A stretch of DNA of 64,000 bases, taken from assembly GCF_044324875.1 (NCBI RefSeq), contig NZ_CP172185.1; one strand, given 5' to 3'. Origin of the DNA: Escherichia coli. Lineage in GTDB: Bacteria > Pseudomonadota > Gammaproteobacteria > Enterobacterales > Enterobacteriaceae. Shown piece by piece: positions 5,906-28,182 of the stretch (position 1 is the first letter of the stretch; the number at the start of each line of letters is the position of its first letter). A program made the translations under genes and the position numbers. The notes beneath the pieces were generated by a model, which was not told the DNA's origin, made no database searches, and saw nothing but the letters and a program-made list of their open reading frames with translations.

Positions 5906-6901
5906 CTAGATTGACTCGCGGGGAAGCCAGGGACTCTCAACTATCACTTTATCCCGGTGGGTGTCACCATTGATAATGTGCAGTGTACTTAAGCGCCCAA
6001 TTTCATAATGCGGTAGCTGGACCGTGGATAATGGGGGTAAAAATAAGTTTCCAATGCCTACAAGATTGTCATAGCCAAGAACGGCAATATCCTGTGGGAT
6101 TCTGATACCCTGCGTTAACAATGTTTGATACACCATAAATGCAATACGATCGTTACCACAGATGACCGAATCAAATCGCGGTTTCCCCTGTTCGATATGC
6201 GCCAGCAACATCTCCGGAATATCTCGGTAGTGCTCATCGCCGAATTGCATATAGCAGTGCTCAAGCGTATCAGGATCGATACTGGCTTCCCTGCAGGCGC
6301 GATCAAGCCCACGACGACGACGACGCGTCGCCAGATGGTTGACGGGTAAATGCAGGCATAGAGGGCGGCTGTATCCTGCTGCCAGCAGTGCCTGTACGGC
6401 CGTATACTGGCCATGTTCATCGTCAGGTATATAGCTGGCAACCGGCTCTCCCTTGTTCTCGCAGTTGGCCAGAACGCAAGGAAGCTCCAGTAACCGGGGA
6501 GGAATACTGACTTCACGCAGCCCCATGGTAGTAAAAATGATCCCCCCGGGTCGATGGGCGAGCAGCAGGTCGACAATATCGTCAGGATTATCATCGGTAA
6601 ACATATTCACCACAAAGCTGTTCCAGCCATACGCCCGCGCGGTTTCTTCAATAGACAGCGTGATTTCTACTGAAAAAGGAGTGGTGACCGTATCCAGCGC
6701 AAGCACACCAATCGTTTTGTTCCGGGTGCCAACACGACGAATCTGCTGGGCAGAAAGGTCTGGCACATAATTTAACTGCGTGATCGCCTCCTGCACCCGA
6801 GCCAGAGTCTCAGGCTTTACGCGTTTCGGGTCATTCAGCACCCGTGAAACCGTCATGAGCGATACATTGGCCAGTTTGGCCACATCCTTTAAAGACGCCA
6901 T
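5906..6901 (-). CDS. fosR: LacI/GalR-family repressor, divergent from the fos operon
   Basis: 331 aa. N-terminal HTH reads MASLKDVAKLANVSLMTVSRVLN, followed by a periplasmic-binding-protein-like sugar-binding domain. It lies divergent to the transporter gene. Confidence 0.85.
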   Translation of the reverse strand: MASLKDVAKLANVSLMTVSRVLNDPKRVKPETLARVQEAITQLNYVPDLSAQQIRRVGTRNKTIGVLALDTVTTPFSVEITLSIEETARAYGWNSFVVNMFTDDNPDDIVDLLLAHRPGGIIFTTMGLREVSIPPRLLELPCVLANCENKGEPVASYIPDDEHGQYTAVQALLAAGYSRPLCLHLPVNHLATRRRRRGLDRACREASIDPDTLEHCYMQFGDEHYRDIPEMLLAHIEQGKPRFDSVICGNDRIAFMVYQTLLTQGIRIPQDIAVLGYDNLVGIGNLFLPPLSTVQLPHYEIGRLSTLHIINGDTHRDKVIVESPWLPRESI

Positions 6902-7141: not shown

Positions 7142-8380
7142 ATGAAAAAACGGCCTACTCGAAGTTACATGCTGCTCAGCGCTCTGCTGTTCTTTTTCTT
7201 TGTGACCTGGTCCTCATCAAGTTCACTGCTCTCAATCTGGCTTCACCAGGAAGTGGGGCTAAAAGCATCGGAAACCGGCATTATTTTTTCAGTATTATCC
7301 GTCTCCGCGCTCTTCGCGCAGGTCTGTTATGGCTTTATTCAGGACCGACTTGGTCTGCGCAAACATTTGTTATGGTTTATCACCGCGTTGTTGATCCTCT
7401 CCGGCCCGGCTTATCTGCTTTTTAGTTATTTGCTGAGCGTTAATATTCTGCTGGGCAGCGTATTCGGGGGCTTATTTATCGGGCTGACGTTTAATGGGGG
7501 TATCGGCGTTCTGGAGTCCTATACCGAGCGCGTCGCGCGTCAAAGTACCTTTGAGTTTGGGCGGGCACGCATGTGGGGGTCTCTGGGCTGGGCAGTTGCC
7601 ACGTTTTTTGCCGGGTTACTGTTTAATATCAACCCTGACCTTAACTTCCTGGTGGCTTCATGCTCAGGGTTAATCTTCTTCTGCCTCCTGGCCCGATTAA
7701 AGGTGGCCGCGCCGGCAAGCATGGAGAAACTCGAAATTGGCGCTAAAAAAGTTTCTCTGGAAGACGCCCTGCGTCTGCTTACTCTGCCGCGCTTCTGGGC
7801 ACTGATATTCTTCGTGGTCGGAACCTGCATTTACGGCGTATACGATCAGCAATTCCCGGTCTATTTCTCATCACAGTTCCCGACATTACGCGAAGGGAAC
7901 GAGATGTTTGGCTATTTAAACTCTTTCCAGGTCTTTCTCGAGGCCGCAGGTATGTTTTGTGCGCCGTGGCTGGTTAATCGCATTGGTGCTAAAAATGGTC
8001 TGATATTCGCAGGAATGGTGATGGCGCTGCGCATGATTACTTCAGGGCTGGTGGAAGGCCCCCTGCTTATCTCCATTACCAAACTGCTTCACGCGGTCGA
8101 ACTGCCAATATTGTTAGTCGCCATATTTAAATACAACAGTCTGAATTTCGACAAACGTCTCTCCTCCACCATTTATCTGGTGGGATTTGCCTGCACCAGC
8201 TCCGTCATTGGTACCGTATTGTCCCCGCTGGCAGGCTTTAGCTATGAGAGATTTGGCTTCGCCCAATCCTATCTGATCATGGGCATCATGGTGTTCAGCA
8301 CCACGTTTATTTCCATTTTCCTTTTGCGCTCAACTAAATCCTCATCTGAGCCATCTTTTCTGCAGCAAAAAGCTGTGTAA
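7142..8380 (+). CDS. fosT: Oligosaccharide:H+ symporter (LacY/RafB/CscB-like MFS)
   Basis: 412 aa with 12 predicted TMS; OHS-family features throughout the sequence. Confidence 0.85.
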   Translation: MKKRPTRSYMLLSALLFFFFVTWSSSSSLLSIWLHQEVGLKASETGIIFSVLSVSALFAQVCYGFIQDRLGLRKHLLWFITALLILSGPAYLLFSYLLSVNILLGSVFGGLFIGLTFNGGIGVLESYTERVARQSTFEFGRARMWGSLGWAVATFFAGLLFNINPDLNFLVASCSGLIFFCLLARLKVAAPASMEKLEIGAKKVSLEDALRLLTLPRFWALIFFVVGTCIYGVYDQQFPVYFSSQFPTLREGNEMFGYLNSFQVFLEAAGMFCAPWLVNRIGAKNGLIFAGMVMALRMITSGLVEGPLLISITKLLHAVELPILLVAIFKYNSLNFDKRLSSTIYLVGFACTSSVIGTVLSPLAGFSYERFGFAQSYLIMGIMVFSTTFISIFLLRSTKSSSEPSFLQQKAV

Positions 8381-8399: not shown

Positions 8400-9833
8400 A
8401 TGACATCCTTATTAGAACAGGCTGAACAGGTGCTTGAAAAAGCACAATCCGGGATTAATCCGCGCTGGTATCCGCGCTATCACCTCGCCCCTCGCGCAGG
8501 CTGGATGAATGATCCTAATGGCCTGGTATGGTTTGACGGCTGGTATCACGCCTTTTATCAACACCATCCCTACTCCCCGAAATGGGGTCCGATGCACTGG
8601 GGGCACGCCCGAAGCAAAGATCTGGTGCATTGGGAACATTTGCCCGTCGCGCTAGCGCCGGAAGGCCCGGCGGACAAAGACGGCTGTTTCTCAGGTTCCG
8701 CCGTGGTGGACGGCGATACGCTGGCGCTCATCTATACCGGACATAAATTTCACGGCCCGTCGGACACTGACGACAACCTCTACCAGGTGCAGTGTCTGGC
8801 GACCAGTCGTGACGGCATCCATTTTGAACGGCACGGCAAGGTGATTGATACACCGCCCGGACTGCATCACTTTCGCGATCCGAAGGTGTGGCGCGAAGGT
8901 GAGTTCTGGTACATGGTTGTCGGTTCCCGCGTGGAAAATACCGGTCAGGTGCGCCTGTACCGTTCCACCGATCTCCGCGAATGGCATGACGAAGGTATTT
9001 TCGCCGAGGCTGATGAAGGCAAGGGCTTTATGTGGGAATGCCCGGATTTCTTCCCCCTGGGAGAGAAGCGTGTCCTGATGTTCTCGCCGCAGGGCATGGC
9101 GGCGGAAGGGTATCACTATCGCAACCTGTTCCAGAGCGGTTATTTACTTGGGGACTGGCAGCCAGGTCAACCGTTCACCCACAGCGGACAATTTACTGAG
9201 CTGGACCACGGCCACGACTTTTATGCCCCGCAGAGTTTCCTGACCCCGGATGGCCGACGCATTGTCATCGGGTGGCTGGATATGTGGGAATCATCGATGC
9301 CCGAACAGCAGGATGGCTGGGCCGGAATGCTCTCGCTTCCTCGCGAATTAAGCCTTGTCGATGGTCGTGTGAGAATGAAACCTGCTGCCGAAGTGACCGC
9401 GCTGCGTGGCAGCTATTATCCCACGCCCGTCCGCTGTCTGAACAATCAGAACGTCCTTGTCGCGGCAAATGCCGACGCGGTCGAAGTTCAGTTGGCATGG
9501 GATTTGAGCGCATCGACGGCTGAACAGTTTGGTATCGCGTTGGGCGACGGGTTGAGAATTTACGTCGATGATCAGGCTGGGCGTCTGGTGGTGGAGCGCC
9601 GCTATCCGGAATATTCGCTGGAAGGCACTCGCAGTATTCCGCTTCCAGCAGACAGCGTTCTGTCACTGCGAATTTTTATTGACCGCTCATCGGTGGAAGT
9701 TTTTGTTAACGATGGTGACGCTTGCTTAAGCAGTCGTATTTATCCGCAGCCGGGCGAGCGTGATATTTCATTGTTTGCAAATCTGGGGAAGGCCTCATTA
9801 TACGATGCGGGATACTGGTCTTTAGATAAATAA
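8400..9833 (+). CDS. fosGH2: GH32 beta-fructofuranosidase, cytoplasmic (sucrose-6-P hydrolase / invertase-like)
   Basis: 477 aa. Carries the GH32 N-terminal WMNDPNGL motif, the RDP motif (HFRDPKV) and EC motif (WECPDF). No signal peptide. Confidence 0.85.
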   Translation: MTSLLEQAEQVLEKAQSGINPRWYPRYHLAPRAGWMNDPNGLVWFDGWYHAFYQHHPYSPKWGPMHWGHARSKDLVHWEHLPVALAPEGPADKDGCFSGSAVVDGDTLALIYTGHKFHGPSDTDDNLYQVQCLATSRDGIHFERHGKVIDTPPGLHHFRDPKVWREGEFWYMVVGSRVENTGQVRLYRSTDLREWHDEGIFAEADEGKGFMWECPDFFPLGEKRVLMFSPQGMAAEGYHYRNLFQSGYLLGDWQPGQPFTHSGQFTELDHGHDFYAPQSFLTPDGRRIVIGWLDMWESSMPEQQDGWAGMLSLPRELSLVDGRVRMKPAAEVTALRGSYYPTPVRCLNNQNVLVAANADAVEVQLAWDLSASTAEQFGIALGDGLRIYVDDQAGRLVVERRYPEYSLEGTRSIPLPADSVLSLRIFIDRSSVEVFVNDGDACLSSRIYPQPGERDISLFANLGKASLYDAGYWSLDK

Positions 9834-9997
9834 TTCTCCGTTCCGACCTGTTTCTTGCAGGGTGAGTTTTTATTTCTGCCAGTCTCTGGCTGGCATGTTA
9901 TTGTCTGGAATAATGAGAGAGCAAAATGGATGAAAGCGTAATACCTCAAAATTGCATTACCTCGAAAGATAAAAATATATTTGTTCCAGGAAAACAG

Positions 9998-11191
9998 ATG
10001 CTGGCATTAATGGTGACATTAGCAGCATTTCCTGCCATTGCTGAAGACGTTACAGGAAACTATCAAAGCTATTTTCAGGATGAATCAGACACCAACGGTA
10101 CGAGTGTTTCATTAGCCAATCAAGGCAATGAAAAATCATCCCTTAGCGCTTCATCTTCTCCGGTTGCTGCAGGTCAAAAACCTGAACTCACGACCTCGTC
10201 AAAGCCAGTGACGTTATCGGCACCAATGGAGAATAAGAAAACTGCAGTAGAAAAACGTCCTAAAGGGGATAACCCTAAAGATGTCAGTCTGTTGCGTTTA
10301 AGGCAGGAAGATCCGCCGGTTCACTGGAACAGTATTGGTCGTAACATGGAAGTGGGTAGCTTGCATGGGAACATTGGATCTCAGATAGAAATTGACGATG
10401 TTCGCTGGAGCAATAATAAGAAAAACAGCGGCAAGTTTAAACTCGCCACCATTCAGGCTTTTTTAAGGCACGATGAATTGCCTAACTGGTATTTCGGTTT
10501 CTGGAATGCCAGAGAAGACAGTTATAAAGGACAGTTCAGTAATCAGGACTATAAAGGCACCAATACCATCAATGAATTTTTTGTGGGCCATATTTTCGAA
10601 ACCTGGCGGGGTAATATCGGTACGGAAGTCATGGTCGGCTCCGAAACGGCAACTAAACGCTGGAAAAACCGGTTCAAAGTCTGGCAGGACCTGCGACTGT
10701 CCAACAAATGGAGCCTGGCCGGATACGCGTATGGCGAGTATCAGCCTCAGGGGAACGAACCGGGGAATGGCGATCTGGAGCAGTACATTTTCGAAATTGA
10801 GCCAGCCATTCAATACCGCGTGAATCCGGATCTCGGACTCTATTTGCGGCCCTATTATTACCATAACCGCCAGGAGCGTCAGAGCTGGGGCGACATTGTA
10901 GAAGAAGAATGGAAAGTCACGGCCGGGCTCTGGCGAAACTGGTATCCATTATTAACCTCCCTGTATGTTGGATTTGGCCAGGACAAAATAGATAACGCCA
11001 GCAATGCCAGCGAAGTTTTCTATGACGGCCGTTATAAGTTTATCGGTGGAACGCTGAGTTATCCGGTATTTGGTGAGGTGCGATTATATGGTGAATTCAA
11101 GGCACAATTTACGAAAGAAACCGGACTTTGGACATCAACCGGTCACTCATGGAATCCGTTTACCGTGGTTGGCGTGAATTATAACTTCTGA
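9998..11191 (+). CDS. fosX: Putative outer-membrane beta-barrel protein (candidate oligosaccharide porin); ORF may start at 9926
   Basis: Signal peptide MLALMVTLAAFPAIA begins at 9998. The protein is rich in aromatic/Gly residues and ends ...VGVNYNF with a C-terminal Phe. It is a paralogue of the ORF at 12712-13725 (shared WRNW and NYNF/DYNF motifs). Confidence 0.6.
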   Translation: MLALMVTLAAFPAIAEDVTGNYQSYFQDESDTNGTSVSLANQGNEKSSLSASSSPVAAGQKPELTTSSKPVTLSAPMENKKTAVEKRPKGDNPKDVSLLRLRQEDPPVHWNSIGRNMEVGSLHGNIGSQIEIDDVRWSNNKKNSGKFKLATIQAFLRHDELPNWYFGFWNAREDSYKGQFSNQDYKGTNTINEFFVGHIFETWRGNIGTEVMVGSETATKRWKNRFKVWQDLRLSNKWSLAGYAYGEYQPQGNEPGNGDLEQYIFEIEPAIQYRVNPDLGLYLRPYYYHNRQERQSWGDIVEEEWKVTAGLWRNWYPLLTSLYVGFGQDKIDNASNASEVFYDGRYKFIGGTLSYPVFGEVRLYGEFKAQFTKETGLWTSTGHSWNPFTVVGVNYNF

Positions 11192-11205
11192 TATTCAGGT
11201 GTAGC

Positions 11206-12699
11206 ATGAAAAAATTAATAGTTGCGGCATCTTTCGCTCTGCTTGCGCTTTCGCTCGGCAATAACCCTGCCTGGTCACAGCCTTCGAAAGAGACATTACA
11301 GAATAAAAGCATCACCCATATTAATGGCTTTTTTCCGAGGGTTGAAGGTTCATTCGTGGGCGACCCTATGCCCGTTTTTAACGATGGCAAATTTGATATT
11401 TATTATCTTAATGATGTCCGAGGCGGCAGCGATCTGGGGGTACATGCTTTTCATCTCTTGTCGAGTGCCAACTTGTATGATTATCAGAACCATTCGGAAG
11501 TGATCCCCTACGTTAACGACGTTGACGATCCTGAACTGTTATTGGGAACCGGTTCGATTATTAAAGTCGGCGATACCTGGCATGCCTGGTACACCGCACA
11601 CAATGAAAATGTGTTCCCGGTTGAGTCTGTTATGCACGCGACCAGTAAGGACCGCCTTCACTGGGTGAAACACCCGCAGGACACCCTGTTACCCGGCGGT
11701 AACTATCGGGGTAATGATTTCAGGGACCCTCACGTCGTTTGGGTTGAGGAAAAGAAAGAATACTGGATGTTAATTACTACGCGCAGTAATGGTCGTGGGG
11801 TTATTGCCCGATACAGTTCAACGGATTTAAAGCACTGGGAAGATCGCGGCGTATTTTTTGATAACGACACCATCACCAGCAATGCCAACCTCGAATGCCC
11901 GACACTGGTTTACTTCAACGGACGCTGGTATCTCAGCTTTAGCGACCAATGGCCGTTACGCCTGACACAATACCGGGTTGCGGACAATCCGGAGGGGCCG
12001 TGGCGGAAACTGGACAATTATGTGGTCGACGGCTCAGGTTTTTACGCGGGTAAACTGGTTCTCAAAAACGATCGGCTGTTTGTTTTCGGCTGGATCCCGA
12101 CGAAAGCCGGTAACCGTGACAGCGGCAACATTGATTGGGCAGGGAATCTGGTTGCTCATGAGCTCACCGCAGATGCCCAGGGCCAGCTCAACAGCATCCT
12201 CCCCCAGGAGCTTCAGAAGGTCATCAGTGAGAATCCTGGCCCGGAAACCACCTTGACGAGCACTAAGACACTCAAAACGGACACGTCGTTCGGCCCCTTA
12301 CAGTCGGCGCTGTACCCGGCCTTGCCTGAGCGCGGTGAGTTGAGTGCAACCATCGATGTTCCTTCTGCCGGAATGGTGATGAGCTTTGGTCTGACCGACG
12401 ACAGAGTCAGTGATGCGATGCTGAACGTTGTGTTCAATAAGAGCAAAGGAAAAGTCTATTTTTTCAACGCGCCGCTAGCGTCGATTCATCAGGCTAACGC
12501 GGAATCCTGGGTGGACATTCCGATCGGGGAAAAAATTGAGTTACGCGTTCTCATACAAAACTCAATTGCTGTCTTTTATATAAACAACAAAGTGGCATTC
12601 AGTACCCGGATGTATTCCATGCAGGAGAAACCGTGGAGTATTAGCCTGCCTCAAAACGACCATTTTCACGCGACGTTGAAAATAAAAGAAATGATTTAA
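11206..12699 (+). CDS. fosGH1: GH32 fructan/fructooligosaccharide hydrolase with signal peptide (periplasmic/exported)
   Basis: 497 aa. Signal peptide MKKLIVAASFALLALSLGNNPAWSQ, then the GH32 motifs (RDPHV, ECP). Confidence 0.8.
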   Translation: MKKLIVAASFALLALSLGNNPAWSQPSKETLQNKSITHINGFFPRVEGSFVGDPMPVFNDGKFDIYYLNDVRGGSDLGVHAFHLLSSANLYDYQNHSEVIPYVNDVDDPELLLGTGSIIKVGDTWHAWYTAHNENVFPVESVMHATSKDRLHWVKHPQDTLLPGGNYRGNDFRDPHVVWVEEKKEYWMLITTRSNGRGVIARYSSTDLKHWEDRGVFFDNDTITSNANLECPTLVYFNGRWYLSFSDQWPLRLTQYRVADNPEGPWRKLDNYVVDGSGFYAGKLVLKNDRLFVFGWIPTKAGNRDSGNIDWAGNLVAHELTADAQGQLNSILPQELQKVISENPGPETTLTSTKTLKTDTSFGPLQSALYPALPERGELSATIDVPSAGMVMSFGLTDDRVSDAMLNVVFNKSKGKVYFFNAPLASIHQANAESWVDIPIGEKIELRVLIQNSIAVFYINNKVAFSTRMYSMQEKPWSISLPQNDHFHATLKIKEMI

Positions 12700-12711
12700 C
12701 GGGATATTATT

Positions 12712-13725
12712 ATGAAAAACTATCATGCCCTGTCTGTTATTTTTACTCTTATGTTACCCGCGCTGGCGAATGCGAGCATGAGCATCATGAAGGATCCGTC
12801 TGGAAAGGTTATCGCCGTGGACCCTTGGTCATATCTTGATGAAGATGTTATGTGGACCTCAGCCCGCTCCTCCAATCCTGCCGGTGGCCGCGTTCATGGC
12901 CAACTGAAAATGAAATATGCCATTGAGGATAATAACTGGCGTAACAGCCATTTCCACAACGGGAATGATTCGCTGACGTTTGTACAAGGTGTGATGCGGC
13001 ACGATGCGTTACCCGGTTGGTATCTGGCTTTCTCTGAGGGCAGAACCACTAACTATAACGGGACGTGGGAGGATCAGTCTTACCTCAGCCAAAACCAGTG
13101 GACTCAGTTGATCATCGGCCATGAATATTTTTACAAGCGTCTGCGCTATGGCTGGGATGTGATGGGAGGAAGCGCCTCAATCGAAGACCGCTGGCAAGGC
13201 CGCGTTAAGTTCTTTACCGATCTTCGGGTTACGGATAATTTCTCATTCTTTAACTACCTGTATCAGCAGATCGATCACCGGCGCAGCGGTGGGTCGCAAA
13301 ACGACCGTGACGTGCGTTCATTTCAGATTGAGCCAGGCGTGCAATACATTATTAATAACAACACCGGTGTCTGGTTCCGCCAGCAGTTCGCATCTGCCAT
13401 TTTAGACAGGGCGCAGTGGGGCGATATCGACGAAAAAAGCTGGACCACGTCAGTCGGCGTCTGGCGAAACTGGGGGAAGTTATCCACAACGCTCAGCGGC
13501 GGTTATGGTCATTATAAGAAATACAATGCGCAACCTGAGGATGGCGAAGTCTTTCAGAATACCCGCAATCGCTTCCTGAAGGTATCGGCAAATTATCCTT
13601 TGACCTCTCGTTTTACCGTGTCCGGAGAAGTTACTGGTTCGTTGATCAAACAGAACGGAAGTTGGGTCACTAACGGTGAGGCCATTACCACTGAGTATAA
13701 GCTGATGCTGGATTATAACTTTTAA
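12712..13725 (+). CDS. fosY: Putative outer-membrane beta-barrel protein, paralogue of fosX
   Basis: 337 aa. Signal peptide MKNYHALSVIFTLMLPALANAS; C-terminal ...LMLDYNF. Shares the WRNWG and alternating-aromatic pattern with the 9998-11191 ORF. Confidence 0.6.
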   Translation: MKNYHALSVIFTLMLPALANASMSIMKDPSGKVIAVDPWSYLDEDVMWTSARSSNPAGGRVHGQLKMKYAIEDNNWRNSHFHNGNDSLTFVQGVMRHDALPGWYLAFSEGRTTNYNGTWEDQSYLSQNQWTQLIIGHEYFYKRLRYGWDVMGGSASIEDRWQGRVKFFTDLRVTDNFSFFNYLYQQIDHRRSGGSQNDRDVRSFQIEPGVQYIINNNTGVWFRQQFASAILDRAQWGDIDEKSWTTSVGVWRNWGKLSTTLSGGYGHYKKYNAQPEDGEVFQNTRNRFLKVSANYPLTSRFTVSGEVTGSLIKQNGSWVTNGEAITTEYKLMLDYNF

Positions 13726-13838: not shown

Positions 13839-14801
13839 ATGAATATCTGGACTCTTGGCGATGCTGTTGTTGATCTTCTACCCCTTACAGATATGCAATT
13901 TCGTGCTTGTGCAGGAGGTGCGCCATTTAATGTTGCGATAGGTACTGCACAATTGAAATGTCGTACCGGCTTTATAGGTCGCGTAGGGGATGACGATTTT
14001 GGCCATTTCCTGAGAAAAACTCTCGAAGATTCAGGAGTTTCTACACAATGTATCCAAATGGATAAATATCATCGTACAAGTACAGTACTGGTTTCTCTTA
14101 AAGATCAGGGAGAACGTGGTTTTACATTTCTTACGAACCCTTCAGCCGACCAATTTCTAACACAAGATGCCCTTCCAGCTTTTAGTGATGATATCCTGCA
14201 TTTTTGTTCACTTGCGCTGGTTGCTGCAGATTGCCGCACGACTTTGACTAAAGCAGTCCAGGAAGTCATTGACCACGGTGGACTTATCAGCTTTGATGTT
14301 AATTTACGAGACCAAATGTGGCGTGATAAGGAAGAAATGTTTGCGACAGTGAGTCAATTCGCTGAAAAAGCCGATATCCTTAAACTCTCTGAAGAAGAGT
14401 GGTACTGGTTAATGGGTACACATGATTATACAGAGGCGTTAGAAGCACTCAAAACCCATCCTGCCAGATTAAAAGTGGTCACCTTTGGTGCGAGAGGTTC
14501 ATTGGTATTATGGCAAGATATGGTGATACATTTCAGAGGATTTAATGTTAAAAGTATTGACACAACAGGCGCTGGAGATGCTTTTATGGCTGGGTTACTT
14601 GCCAGCATCGCCAATAAAGGTTTGCCAATGAATTTTCCAGAACTTCAATTAGCAATCACTCAGGCCAGTGCCACCGGAGCGCTCGCAACTACCAAAAAAG
14701 GTGCACTTACCGCCCTTCCTGATACAGCCGCACTGGAAACGTTCATTAATCATTTTCCATTACCGGGCTATGAGATCCTTGGAGCAACCGCTACGGTGTA
14801 A
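13839..14801 (+). CDS. fosK: Fructokinase (PfkB ribokinase family)
   Basis: 320 aa with both PfkB signatures (GGAPFN ... DTTGAGDAF). Last gene of the co-oriented cluster. Confidence 0.85.
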   Translation: MNIWTLGDAVVDLLPLTDMQFRACAGGAPFNVAIGTAQLKCRTGFIGRVGDDDFGHFLRKTLEDSGVSTQCIQMDKYHRTSTVLVSLKDQGERGFTFLTNPSADQFLTQDALPAFSDDILHFCSLALVAADCRTTLTKAVQEVIDHGGLISFDVNLRDQMWRDKEEMFATVSQFAEKADILKLSEEEWYWLMGTHDYTEALEALKTHPARLKVVTFGARGSLVLWQDMVIHFRGFNVKSIDTTGAGDAFMAGLLASIANKGLPMNFPELQLAITQASATGALATTKKGALTALPDTAALETFINHFPLPGYEILGATATV

Positions 14802-14909: not shown

Positions 14910-14936
14910 GGGCAGCCTTATACTGCCCCTTTTTCT
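14910..14936 (+). terminator. Rho-independent terminator after fosK
   Basis: Hairpin gggcagccttatactgccc followed by ctttttct. Confidence 0.7.
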
Positions 14937-15454: not shown

Positions 15455-17026
15455 TTACTGAGAGCTCAGATCAACTTTCCAGGGCAACAGATCGCGTACC
15501 CGGTTTGCCGGCCAGTCCTGGATATGTTCAATGACGTAACGCAGCCACTTTTCTGGCTCCACATTGTTCAGACGGCATGTGCCGATCAGCGAGTACAACA
15601 CCGCCGCATGTTCACCACCGCTGTCGGAACCCGCGAACATCCAGTTTTTCCGGCCTACGGCCACTCCCCGTAAGGCGTTCTCTGCGATGTTGTTGTCGAT
15701 TTCCACCCAGCCATTACTGCAGTACACGTTCAGTGCATCCCACTGTTTCAGCAGGTATGCGAACGCTTTTGCCGTATCTGAGTGACGCGACAGTGTTTTC
15801 ATCTGTTGCTGTATCCAGTCATACAGTGACTGCATCAGTGGCGCGGCTCTGGCTTTTCTTGCCGCCAGACGCTGTTCTGCTGAACAGCCCCGGACCTCTG
15901 CCTCGATGGCATACAGTTCACCGATACGCTGCAGGGCTTCCGTGGTGATGTAGGTGGGCGCTCTTGCATGCACATCGTGGATTTTTCTCCGGGCATGAGC
16001 CATACACGCGGCTTCCGTTATTCTGCCGGATTCGTATAACGCCCGGTAACCACCGTAAGCATCGGCCTGAAGCACACCGCTGTAACCGGCCAGGTGATTT
16101 TGTGGATGGATACCTTTCCGGTCCGGACTGTACGCGAACCAGACCGCCGGGGGCATCTGTGAACCGGCGTTACGGTCATCACGGACGTAGACCCACAGCC
16201 GGGCTGTCCGGGTTTTACCGCTGCCCGGCTCCTGGACCGGGACGGGGATATCATCAGCATGGACTTTACCGGGCATCAGCACATACTGGCGCAGGACGTC
16301 ATACAGCGGCTCCAGCAGTTCAGCAACAGCACCTGTCCAGCGCCCCAGTGTGGCACGGCTCAGCTCCACTCCCTGACGACGGTATATTTCTGACTGGCGG
16401 TATAACGGCAGATGGTCTGCATATTTCCCGGTGACAACATGGGCCAGAAGCCCCGCTCCGGCATAACTGCGTGCAATGGGTTTTGAAGGTACTGGTGCCT
16501 GCACGATATGGTCGCACCGGCAACAGGCCTGTTTCGGACGTTGTGTTTCGATAACCTTAAAGGCGCTGCTGATAAGCTCCAGTTGCTCTGACACATCACA
16601 TCCCAGAGAACTGAGTTCACCACCACAGGCAGGACAGCATTCCTCTTCCGGCCGGATAACCCGGGTTTCACGGGGAAGTGAGGCCGGTAACGGTTTACGG
16701 GCTGAAGACTGGCGCAGGGCGGATGGCAGTACCGGGTCATATTGCTCACCCAGCGTTTCCGCCATTTCTTCCTGAAGTGCGCTGATTCGCTCCTGTGCTT
16801 CCTGTATCTGCCGTTCGGTTTTTGCACGAAGTTTTTCTGAGCTTTTACCGAACTGCATACGTTGCAGTTTCGCAACCAGCGCCTTCAGCCGGTTGATTTC
16901 GGAAGCATAAGCCGCCACCCGCTGTGAGAGCAGGCGGTTGTATTCAGCCATCTGGCGGATGGTGTCCTGTTGCGTCTGCAACAGTGCCCGCAGGCGGGCG
17001 TTCTCATGAGCAAGTGAGGTGTCCAT
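15455..17026 (-). CDS. tnpC: IS66-family transposase TnpC
   Basis: 523 aa with N-terminal coiled-coil/leucine zipper, a CxxC...CxxC zinc motif and the IS66 DDE core. Confidence 0.85.
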
Positions 17027-17045
17027 ATCCTCACTTTACAACGGG

Positions 17046-17393
17046 TTATATGCGGATTCCAGCGCGTTCCGTTCGTTTCGGGTGCTTCCAGTTGATACCT
17101 TCAAGAAGCATGGATAACTGAGCCGGAGTAAGGTGCACCTTGCCGTCACGGGTGACTGGCCAGACGAAGCGGCCCCGCTCCAGGCGTTTGGTGAAGAGGC
17201 ACAGTCCGTCACTGTCAGCCCACAACACTTTTATCTGGTCACCCCGGCGTCCGCGGAAGATGAACAGGTGTCCGGAGAACGGGTCATCCTTCAGGACGTT
17301 CTGAACTTTTGATGCCAGGCCGTTAAAGCCATTTCGCATATCGGTGATACCTGCAACCAGCCAGATACGCGAACCTGCAGGGAGAGATATCAT
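17046..17393 (-). CDS. tnpB: IS66-family Orf2 (TnpB)
   Basis: 115 aa starting MISLPAGSRIWLVAGITDMRNGFNGLA..., a conserved IS66 accessory protein. Confidence 0.85.
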   Translation of the reverse strand: MISLPAGSRIWLVAGITDMRNGFNGLASKVQNVLKDDPFSGHLFIFRGRRGDQIKVLWADSDGLCLFTKRLERGRFVWPVTRDGKVHLTPAQLSMLLEGINWKHPKRTERAGIRI

Positions 17394-18070
17394 CAGTGGC
17401 TGCTCCCTTTTATTTCGCGGATAAGTGTCTGTAATAACGCCGGCGTCAGTTTACCTTTAAGCCTGAGAGTTCCGGCCGGCAGAACCAGCTCACAACACAG
17501 ACTGTCGGACGGTGTATTTATCTGCTCTGGTTCCTGTGCGGGGGCCGGGATTTTATTATCCGGCTCCGGCGTTAACGTCACGGGAAGCAGTGCCGGCATA
17601 TTTTTTCCGGAAGGCAGCAGGCCACCTTTCCGGTATTGATGGCGCCAGTTGAAGAGCAGGTTATCGTTGATTCCGTTTTCCCGGGCGATCTGCGCCACAC
17701 AGGCTCCGGGCTGCAGTGACTGCTCCACTAAGGCGATTTTAAACTCATAAGGGAAGTTGGGCCGCCGGGGACGTTTTTTTACCACGGGGGCTTCGGATAT
17801 AACGGTGCTTTCAGGACGTACGACTGGTACCGTGGAAAATTGTCCGTAAAGGCAGGCATCAAGTTCCTGCTCCGACATGCCTGCGGGCAAAGGCCACGAA
17901 AGGCCAGCTCTCCGAAAGCGCACGAACATACTACAAACTGTTGATTTTGGTACACCCAGGCGACGCCCGGCCACAACCCGGGGTAAATGTTCTTCAAAGT
18001 GAAGACGTAAAGCTTCAGTGATCCAGGTCCGGTGTTTCATACGATAGTGTCCATTAAAAATGATGGACAT
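17393..18070 (-). CDS. tnpA: IS66-family Orf1 (TnpA, HTH)
   Basis: ORF of 225 aa overlapping tnpB by ATGA. The true start may be an internal Met, since IS66 Orf1 is usually shorter. Confidence 0.65.
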   Translation of the reverse strand: MSIIFNGHYRMKHRTWITEALRLHFEEHLPRVVAGRRLGVPKSTVCSMFVRFRRAGLSWPLPAGMSEQELDACLYGQFSTVPVVRPESTVISEAPVVKKRPRRPNFPYEFKIALVEQSLQPGACVAQIARENGINDNLLFNWRHQYRKGGLLPSGKNMPALLPVTLTPEPDNKIPAPAQEPEQINTPSDSLCCELVLPAGTLRLKGKLTPALLQTLIREIKGSSH

Positions 18071-18140: not shown

Positions 18141-18416
18141 GTGGCTTCCATTTCCATCAGATGTCCTTCCTGCTCCGCTACTGAAGGCGTGGTGCGTAAC
18201 GGCAAAAGCACTGCCGGACATCAGCGCTATCTCTGCTCTCATTGCCGTAAAACATGGCAACTACAGTTCACTTACACCGCCTCTCAGCCCGGTACGCACC
18301 AGAAAATCATTGATATGGCCATGAATAGCGTCGGATGTCGCGCCAGTGCACGCATTATGGGCGTTGGCCTCAACACGGTTTTACGTCACTTAAAAAACTC
18401 AGGCCGCAGTCGGTAA
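18141..18416 (+). CDS. insA: IS1 InsA
   Basis: Translation [43 protein letters not shown]..., an IS1 InsA variant. Confidence 0.9.
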
Positions 18417-18790
18417 CCTCGCGCATACAACCGGGCAGTGATGTGATTGTCTGCGCTGAAATGGACGAACAGTGGGGCTACGTCGGTGCTAAATCACGTC
18501 AGCGCTGGCTGTTTTACGCGTATGACAGGATACGGAGGACGGTTGTGGCGCACGTCTTCGGTGAACGCACTCTGGCCACACTGGAGCGTCTTCTGAGCCT
18601 GCTGTCGGCCTTTGAGGTCGTGGTATGGATGACGGATGGCTGGCCGCTGTATGAATCACGCCTGAAGGGAAAGCTGCACGTTATCAGCAAGCGTTACACT
18701 CAGCGCATTGAGCGACATAATCTGAATCTGAGATCTGGCAAGGCTGGGACGGAAGTCACTGTCGTTCTCAAAATCGGTGGAGCTGCATGA
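18335..18790 (+). CDS. insB: IS1 InsB' frame (InsAB' transposase made by -1 frameshift at the A-run)
   Basis: IS1 B' reading frame; the slippery ttaaaaaactc motif at ~18388 sits in the insA/insB overlap. Confidence 0.85.
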
Positions 18791-27794: not shown

Positions 27795-27889
27795 CTGGCG
27801 GAAGATCACAGGAGTCGAACCTGCCCGGGACCGCTGGCGGCCCCAACTGGATTTGAAGTCCAGCCGCCTCACCGGAGACGACGATCTTC
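27795..27889 (-). tRNA. selC: tRNA-Sec (selC)
   Basis: The reverse complement matches the E. coli selC sequence GGAAGATCGTCGTCTCCGGTGAGGCGGCTGGACTTCAAATCCAGTTGGGGCCGCCAGCGGTCCCGGGCAGGTTCGACTCCTGTGATCTTCCGCCA (95 nt). Confidence 0.95.
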
Positions 27890-28182
27890 CGCGCCTCGAT
27901 TGCTACATGGAGGCGGGGCGCATTATAGCTACTTCCTTGAGTTTCTACATCCCCCAGATCAGTTTTTTCCGCCTAATACACGCAGCGTATTATCACGGAA
28001 GCATTATAATTCATATAAAACCCATATTTTACAATGATATATGAGCGGAATTAACGCTACCACGATCACATAAAACAAGAATCATAAATTAATAACCAGA
28101 TATCGGAATATTCGCTCTCACAGGGATGGTTTACAAAATGCGTTATCGGTCTCAGCACCCCTATAGCATCAAGGAAAAGCAG

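Follow-up and report, generated by a model that had tools for sequence, protein, structure and literature searches.

The present work concerns the fos locus of Escherichia coli as it appears in a 64,000-nucleotide stretch of contig NZ_CP172185.1 (assembly GCF_044324875.1), hereafter the window, and in particular two of its products, FosX and FosY, which the fos papers still treat as proteins of unknown function (PMC3325963 from 2012 and a 2026 bioRxiv preprint). Both proteins are full-length members of the Pfam family PF16946 and are predicted to fold as 14-stranded β-barrels. They quite likely act as passive outer-membrane channels for fructo-oligosaccharides (FOS) or fructans, whereby an exported enzyme of glycoside hydrolase family 32 (GH32) would trim the chains, the permease FosT would import them, and a cytoplasmic GH32 together with the fructokinase FosK would finish their catabolism. 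A preliminary description of the same DNA had regarded the two as paralogous proteins of unknown function resembling outer-membrane β-barrels. The barrel inference is supported, with family, fold and context agreeing independently; the phrase "of unknown function" holds for the fos literature, whereas RefSeq and Pfam already assign both proteins to the OmpG porin family.

The two genes lie on the plus strand, fosX at 9926-11191, coding for a predicted porin precursor of 421 residues, and fosY at 12712-13725, coding for one of 337 residues in the open reading frame (ORF) originally proposed. FosX matches PF16946 (Porin_OmpG_1_2, "OMPG-porin 1 family") with 433.9 bits (E 3.9e-130) over residues 118-421 and positions 2-294 of the 294-position profile, and FosY with 429.5 bits over residues 43-337 and positions 1-294 of 294; the gathering cut-off of the family is 23 bits. 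RefSeq names each an "OmpG porin family protein", FosX in the 421-residue form (WP_001313399.1), and no NCBIfam model matched either protein. Their paralogy is evident from BLASTP, which aligns them at 31% identity over 329 residues (E 1e-52).

Both precursors exhibit the hallmarks of outer-membrane barrels, namely a signal peptide, an even number of strands (14) and a C-terminal aromatic β-signal. The N-terminus of FosY reads MKNYHALSVIFTLMLPALANA followed by SMS, with the cut falling between ...LPALANA and SMS. In FosX the signal peptide is predicted to span residues 1-39 (9926-10042, plus strand) with cleavage between AIA and ED, the hydrophobic core being LALMVTLAAFPAIA followed by EDV, in the full context ...AAFPAIA and EDV. 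As read from the sequence, both fit the rule of small residues at positions -3 and -1. The C-termini are ...VGVNYNF in FosX and ...LMLDYNF in FosY, each closing on Phe, and a single copy of WRNW occurs in each protein, at mature residue 297 of FosX and 230 of FosY. The barrels are rich in Gly (10.1% in FosX, 9.4% in FosY) and in Phe, Trp and Tyr (18.1% and 15.9%). The signal peptides, the terminal Phe, WRNW and the richness in Gly and aromatic residues had been pointed out in the preliminary description and were borne out; a further cue given there, alternating hydrophobic residues, proved weak: when even/odd Kyte-Doolittle values on the predicted strands were compared with 1000 shuffles, the observed value was reached by 35/1000 shuffles for FosX and 148/1000 for FosY. 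Alternation by itself is therefore not strong evidence for a barrel. The PF16946 matches (434 and 430 bits, with the cut-off at 23) place the barrel cues beyond chance and are far stronger than the alternation.

Structure prediction with AlphaFold2, run with a 93-sequence alignment, gave confidently predicted 14-stranded β-barrels for both proteins. The FosY model has 14 strands with a mean predicted local distance difference test score (pLDDT) of 85.8 and a predicted template modelling score of 0.82. In FosX the 14 strands lie at mature residues 107-381 in a block with pLDDT of ~83-96 (about 90 in the barrel), and the overall mean is 76.7. Taken over both proteins, the barrels reach pLDDT of ~85-96. 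The Pfam match and the modelled strands together delimit a pre-barrel segment and barrel at residues 118-421 of FosX (10277-11188, plus strand). The conserved pre-barrel segments of the two proteins are modelled at pLDDT of ~57-66. That of FosY, mature residues 1-39 (SMSIM...PWSYLDEDVMW..., 12775-12891, plus strand), reaches only ~57-62; it is recognized from the FosY-type sequences, of which 36 of the 38 listed have SMS as the mature N-terminus and 37 of the 38 contain WSY[LI]DE, its position being shifted in one N-terminally truncated entry.

The nearest solved folds of both FosX and FosY are CymA and OmpG, outer-membrane oligosaccharide channels. For FosX the best Foldseek matches were OmpG (2iwv, E 2.4e-11, template modelling score 0.77 on the target) and CymA. 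By their predicted fold the two proteins belong to the OmpG/CymA class, and we do not count them in either family by sequence. They are probably monomeric, because OmpG and CymA are. Channels of the CymA class pass bulky oligosaccharides. At the sequence level neither protein matched PF09381, the OmpG family, at E <= 1, and E. coli OmpG in turn matches PF09381 and not PF16946. Sequence homology to E. coli OmpG is not claimed, the hhalign probability being only 44.6% and confined to the C-terminal half; a search of PDB sequences with FosY and a search with a 23-sequence profile returned nothing relevant. There was likewise no match to the LamB/ScrY maltoporins (PF02264), in agreement with the earlier view that the proteins share no obvious motifs with these, nor to the RafY glycoporins (PF16966, Porin_8) or to KdgM/NanC (PF06178, 12 strands).

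The genomic context is the third line of evidence. As described earlier, fosX and fosY flank a gene for a GH32 enzyme with a signal peptide (11206-12699, plus strand). A single peptide pattern derived from the family alignment, with tblastn as confirmation, located 24 loci from different species, and in 24/24 of them FosX, the exported GH32 and FosY follow one another in that order. The arrangement holds in an Orbaceae bacterium, whose proteins are only 39-41% identical, and in Anaerobiospirillum. Both paralogues are always retained together, so they are probably not redundant and may differ, for example, in gating or in the chain lengths or linkages that they prefer. The triplet behaves as a module: among 52 complete E. 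coli genomes that carry part of the fos locus, only 37 contain it, and it is found on 44 PLSDB plasmids, 37 of which are predicted to be conjugative. One plasmid (NZ_CP141751.1, 5112-10696) carries a truncated fos-like locus of major facilitator superfamily permease, GH32 and kinase genes, ~82% identical, which lacks the triplet and instead has a RafY-type glycoporin (PF16966, 501 bits; Sugarporin_N below threshold) beside a LacI regulator. Here the RafY-type porin appears to have replaced the porins of the triplet, one porin type displacing another. From the linkage to GH32 we infer that FOS are the substrates of FosX and FosY.

The exported GH32 is of the FosE2/FosGH2 type, with the Pfam domains Glyco_hydro_32N and GH32_BT1760-like_C, and its catalytic motifs (D in GDP..., RDP and ECP) are intact in the translation. 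Its signal peptide, MKKLIVAASFALLALSLGNNPAWS..., is of the plain Sec type with no lipobox, and the enzyme is for this reason probably located in the periplasm, not at the cell surface. In the PDB its best matches by sequence are 8a9y, 6r3r and 7znr ("Glycoside hydrolase family 32"; E 1e-45 to 3e-45), which we take to be the Bacteroides endo-levanase BT1760. The enzyme resembles this endo-levanase, unlike the exo-acting sucrose or FOS hydrolases. The resemblance suggests that the locus may process levan-type fructans, or fructans longer than short-chain FOS. A periplasmic endo-type fructanase would make sense only if oligosaccharides beyond the limit of FosT cross the outer membrane.

PF16946 is a small family, as had been suspected: when 1.84 billion representative proteins were searched exhaustively with a profile, 24 representatives (50% identity) came out at E <= 1e-3, distant members among them. 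Word-indexed searches collected ~125 clusters at 90% identity, all with PF16946, and a third such search, based on a profile, found no further full-length members. The hosts are Enterobacterales, Aeromonas and Orbaceae, with Vibrio more distant. In a rough neighbour-joining tree the FosX clade is sister to the FosY clade, and the next branch is a single-copy, GH32-linked group comprising V. natriegens P0128 and two metagenomic proteins. This topology suggests that the pair arose by duplication in the fructan-locus lineage. Among six distant members, a GH32 gene directly precedes the porin gene in four, those of V. natriegens, V. viridaestus and two metagenomic contigs, and the V. natriegens GH32 has the BT1760-like C-terminal domain also found in the exported fos enzyme. 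The Vibrio-type loci carry one PF16946 porin only. Another distant porin (locus L032, 3974-7978) follows genes for a GH65 enzyme and a HAD-family hydrolase, presumably a β-phosphoglucomutase, a context that mirrors ycjT-ycjU-(ycjV)-ompG of E. coli K-12 despite no detectable sequence similarity to OmpG. One of the six distant members stands in a locus with an ATP-binding cassette (ABC) transporter, a LacI regulator and a glycosidase.

Downstream of the Vibrio porins are proteins with a lipoprotein-type signal sequence, of 229 residues in V. natriegens (locus L027, 8971-9660) and 401 residues in V. viridaestus (locus L030, 8136-9341), and a metagenomic contig (L033, 7262-11155) codes for a protein of 1297 residues 3' of its single PF16946 porin. 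No significant Pfam match was obtained for any of the three, which are candidates for a role as glycan-binding partners. The 401-residue V. viridaestus protein was also considered as a second porin and rejected (hhalign probability 0.1%).

The start of fosX differs from that given in the preliminary description, in which the ORF itself was real and its start, 9998, is an internal ATG of the longer frame. The start at 9926 is the more likely, because orthologue N-termini begin in register there with M[DKN][ER], the internal Met25 (nucleotide 9998) is not kept in 22 aligned orthologues, and RefSeq annotates the 421-residue form. The ATG at 9998 is preceded by a good AGGA Shine-Dalgarno sequence, yet it is not conserved in other genera. 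A start at 9926 would give the FosX signal peptide an n-region of 24 residues before its hydrophobic core, which is unusually long; among orthologues the start position and length of this region are conserved, and its sequence is not.

A further peculiarity of FosX is a conserved motif near the mature N-terminus, GNYQSYFQDE (residues 44-53; 10055-10084, plus strand), for which a periplasmic location is predicted. Y46, S48 and Y49 do not vary across the 22 aligned orthologues, and Q47 and F50 hardly do. A scripted test for Y[QH]SY[FY] with a downstream LHGN or FHGN anchor was passed by 71/77 full-length FosX orthologues. The six failures comprised three with YESYF, one with YQSYL and two with YQSYF, the last presumably missing the downstream anchor, and every full-length orthologue has Y-[QEH]-S-Y-[FYL] followed by acidic residues a few positions past the signal-peptide cut. 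The motif is joined to the barrel by a low-complexity linker rich in Ser, Thr, Ala and Pro (residues 54-117; 10085-10276, plus strand), which is predicted to be disordered. In the orthologues the linker spans 60-143 residues (median 70), of which S, T, A, P, G, N and Q make up 46-78%. Mature residues 1-78 are modelled as disordered, with pLDDT of 25-39 and ~30 for the motif itself. The FosX N-terminus was compared with a TonB box, a lipobox and a ScrY-type coiled-coil extension, none of which matches the sequence. The WSYLDE of FosY, directly before its barrel, resembles the YQSYFxDE of FosX over ~6 residues only, a resemblance that may be coincidental.

In the pathway proposed here, FosX and/or FosY would give passive entry to the periplasm to FOS whose size or low concentration puts them beyond the general porins OmpF and OmpC, and the Sec-exported BT1760-like GH32 would shorten the fructan chains there. 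The LacY-type FosT would import the short products, up to a degree of polymerization (DP) of ~4, and the cytoplasmic GH32 and FosK would complete their breakdown. Of this scheme, PF16946 membership, the predicted fold and the gene linkage are shown; we infer the outer-membrane location, channel activity and fructan specificity of FosX and FosY, the periplasmic location of the GH32 and a division of labour between the paralogues. Several points weigh against the proposal. Channel activity and specificity rest on fold-level homology, with 10-16% identity to CymA and OmpG, an hhalign probability of 44.6% and no PDB sequence match. Literature searches turned up no experimental work on FosX, on FosY or on another member of PF16946, no paper that mentions PF16946 or the "OmpG porin family", and none that links OmpG to FOS or GH32. 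The proposal also leaves unexplained why two paralogues are needed.

The proteins may alternatively form non-specific, large OmpG-like pores, which would render the outer membrane permeable to any solute up to ~900 Da upon induction of the operon, with no recognition of fructans. This is in keeping with the position of OmpG among the two best structural matches, with the report that OmpG is a non-selective large channel (PMC4827864), and with the occurrence of some PF16946 members in loci for non-fructan sugars, for example with GH65 or GDE-type hydrolases. We judge an unselective pore to be unlikely.

Another conceivable arrangement, itself compatible with fructan channels, is a physical complex of FosX, GH32 and FosY, a proteobacterial counterpart of the levan utilisome in which YQSYFxDE would dock the GH32 where the channels open into the periplasm, or else would serve as a ball-and-chain plug. 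The invariant gene order of the triplet and the resemblance of the exported GH32 to the utilisome enzyme BT1760 would fit such an assembly, as would the fact that virtually every FosX orthologue has YQSYFxDE, carried by a disordered tether that varies in length. The literature mentions ligand gating of 14-stranded channels and documents the gating of CymA and VhChiP by N-terminal plugs (PMC5768706); the periplasmic N-terminal extensions of the ScrY/RafY type (Sugarporin_N) are, like these plugs, a precedent for functional porin N-termini. However, AlphaFold2 gives the motif no placement (pLDDT ~30), co-transfer of the operon can account for the conserved gene order, and Vibrio-type loci manage with a single porin. 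A complex or plug is unlikely. The same holds, speculatively, for the fuller idea of a dedicated three-part module of outer membrane and periplasm for fructans longer than short-chain FOS, in which the two channels would have distinct roles and a FosX "ball" on a chain of 60-143 residues would gate the channel or dock the fructanase. If this is true, the passive sugar porins of the Proteobacteria would include a variant that is new in its regulation or organisation. That the two are plugged barrels with a role other than uptake, such as FadL-like lateral transport, adhesion, an enzymatic activity or product export, is very improbable.

The remaining genes of the window accord with the published E. 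coli fos locus, located within a selC-associated island, and the locus is 100% identical to that of many E. coli chromosomes, including strain BEN2908. The order is fosR (minus strand), fosT, cytoplasmic GH32, fosX, exported GH32, fosY and fosK. The divergently transcribed fosR (5906-6901, minus strand) codes for a LacI-family repressor by ORF and RefSeq annotation, and its regulatory model has been described (PMC3325963). The plus-strand fosT (7142-8380) codes for a LacY-family inner-membrane permease (Pfam LacY_symp, E 6.9e-126), which according to a 2026 review imports FOS up to DP4, or fructotetraose (PMC13543919). The cytoplasmic GH32 (8400-9833, plus strand; Pfam GH32N and GH32C) has no signal peptide and resembles sucrose-6-phosphate hydrolases and β-fructofuranosidases, with 476.9 bits to TIGR01322 (scrB_fam), over the cut-off. 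The final gene, fosK (13839-14801, plus strand), codes for a PfkB-family fructokinase (Pfam PfkB, E 1.1e-53) and has a terminator-like hairpin with a T-run 3' of it (14910-14928). The 92-nucleotide gap between the cytoplasmic GH32 and fosX (9834-9925) contains hairpins at 9847-9861 and 9877-9895, both with a T-rich stretch after them; the two could be a partial terminator or an mRNA-stability element that adjusts how strongly the envelope genes are expressed compared with fosT and the GH32. Directly downstream of fosK are insertion sequence (IS) genes of the IS66 family (15455-18070, minus strand) and then IS1-like ORFs (18141-18790), and a tRNA-Sec gene lies at 27796-27890, all consistent with a selC-associated island. 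The fos locus confers a mobile fitness trait, present both on this island and on plasmids of the conjugative type: it enables E. coli and its relatives among the Enterobacterales to use prebiotic FOS.

The assignment of FosX and FosY to the OmpG/CymA class would complete the pathway from outer-membrane entry through periplasmic trimming and FosT import to cytoplasmic hydrolysis, and it marks PF16946 as an uncharacterised small porin family, linked to GH32 and amenable to electrophysiology. It also suggests that fructans longer than DP4 may be handled by the locus. The gain is incremental, since the family assignment is already in public annotation. Only the paired-paralogue arrangement and the tethered FosX motif could be new.

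Comparison with known systems places the two proteins as follows. Within PF16946 both are full-length, high-scoring members (E about 1e-130), with no difference at the family level. OmpG of E. coli K-12 (PF09381; 2iwv, 2f1c), the monomeric porin with 14 strands and a large pore that the ycj sugar operon encodes, is 10-16% identical to FosX and FosY and lacks both their pre-barrel segment of ~40 residues and the long tether of FosX. CymA of Klebsiella oxytoca (4d5b, 4v3h), a monomeric 14-stranded channel for cyclodextrins and malto-oligosaccharides that is gated by an N-terminal plug, is 10-12% identical with no sequence-level match, and its substrates are α-glucans, whereas those of FosX and FosY are presumably fructans. 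ScrY, LamB and RafY (PF02264, PF16966) have the role proposed here, outer-membrane entry of a specific oligosaccharide that serves an operon containing GH32 and kinase genes, yet they are 18-stranded trimers, whereas FosX and FosY have 14 predicted strands and are probably monomers; they are analogues and not relatives. In the levan utilisome of B. thetaiotaomicron (BT1760, SusC/D BT1762-63) the fructanase gene adjoins genes for an outer-membrane importer, as in fos, yet that importer is a TonB-dependent SusC with SusD, and the fos locus would employ a pair of small passive barrels. FosX and FosY thus largely fit a kind that is already known, the monomeric 14-stranded sugar channels of utilisation operons.

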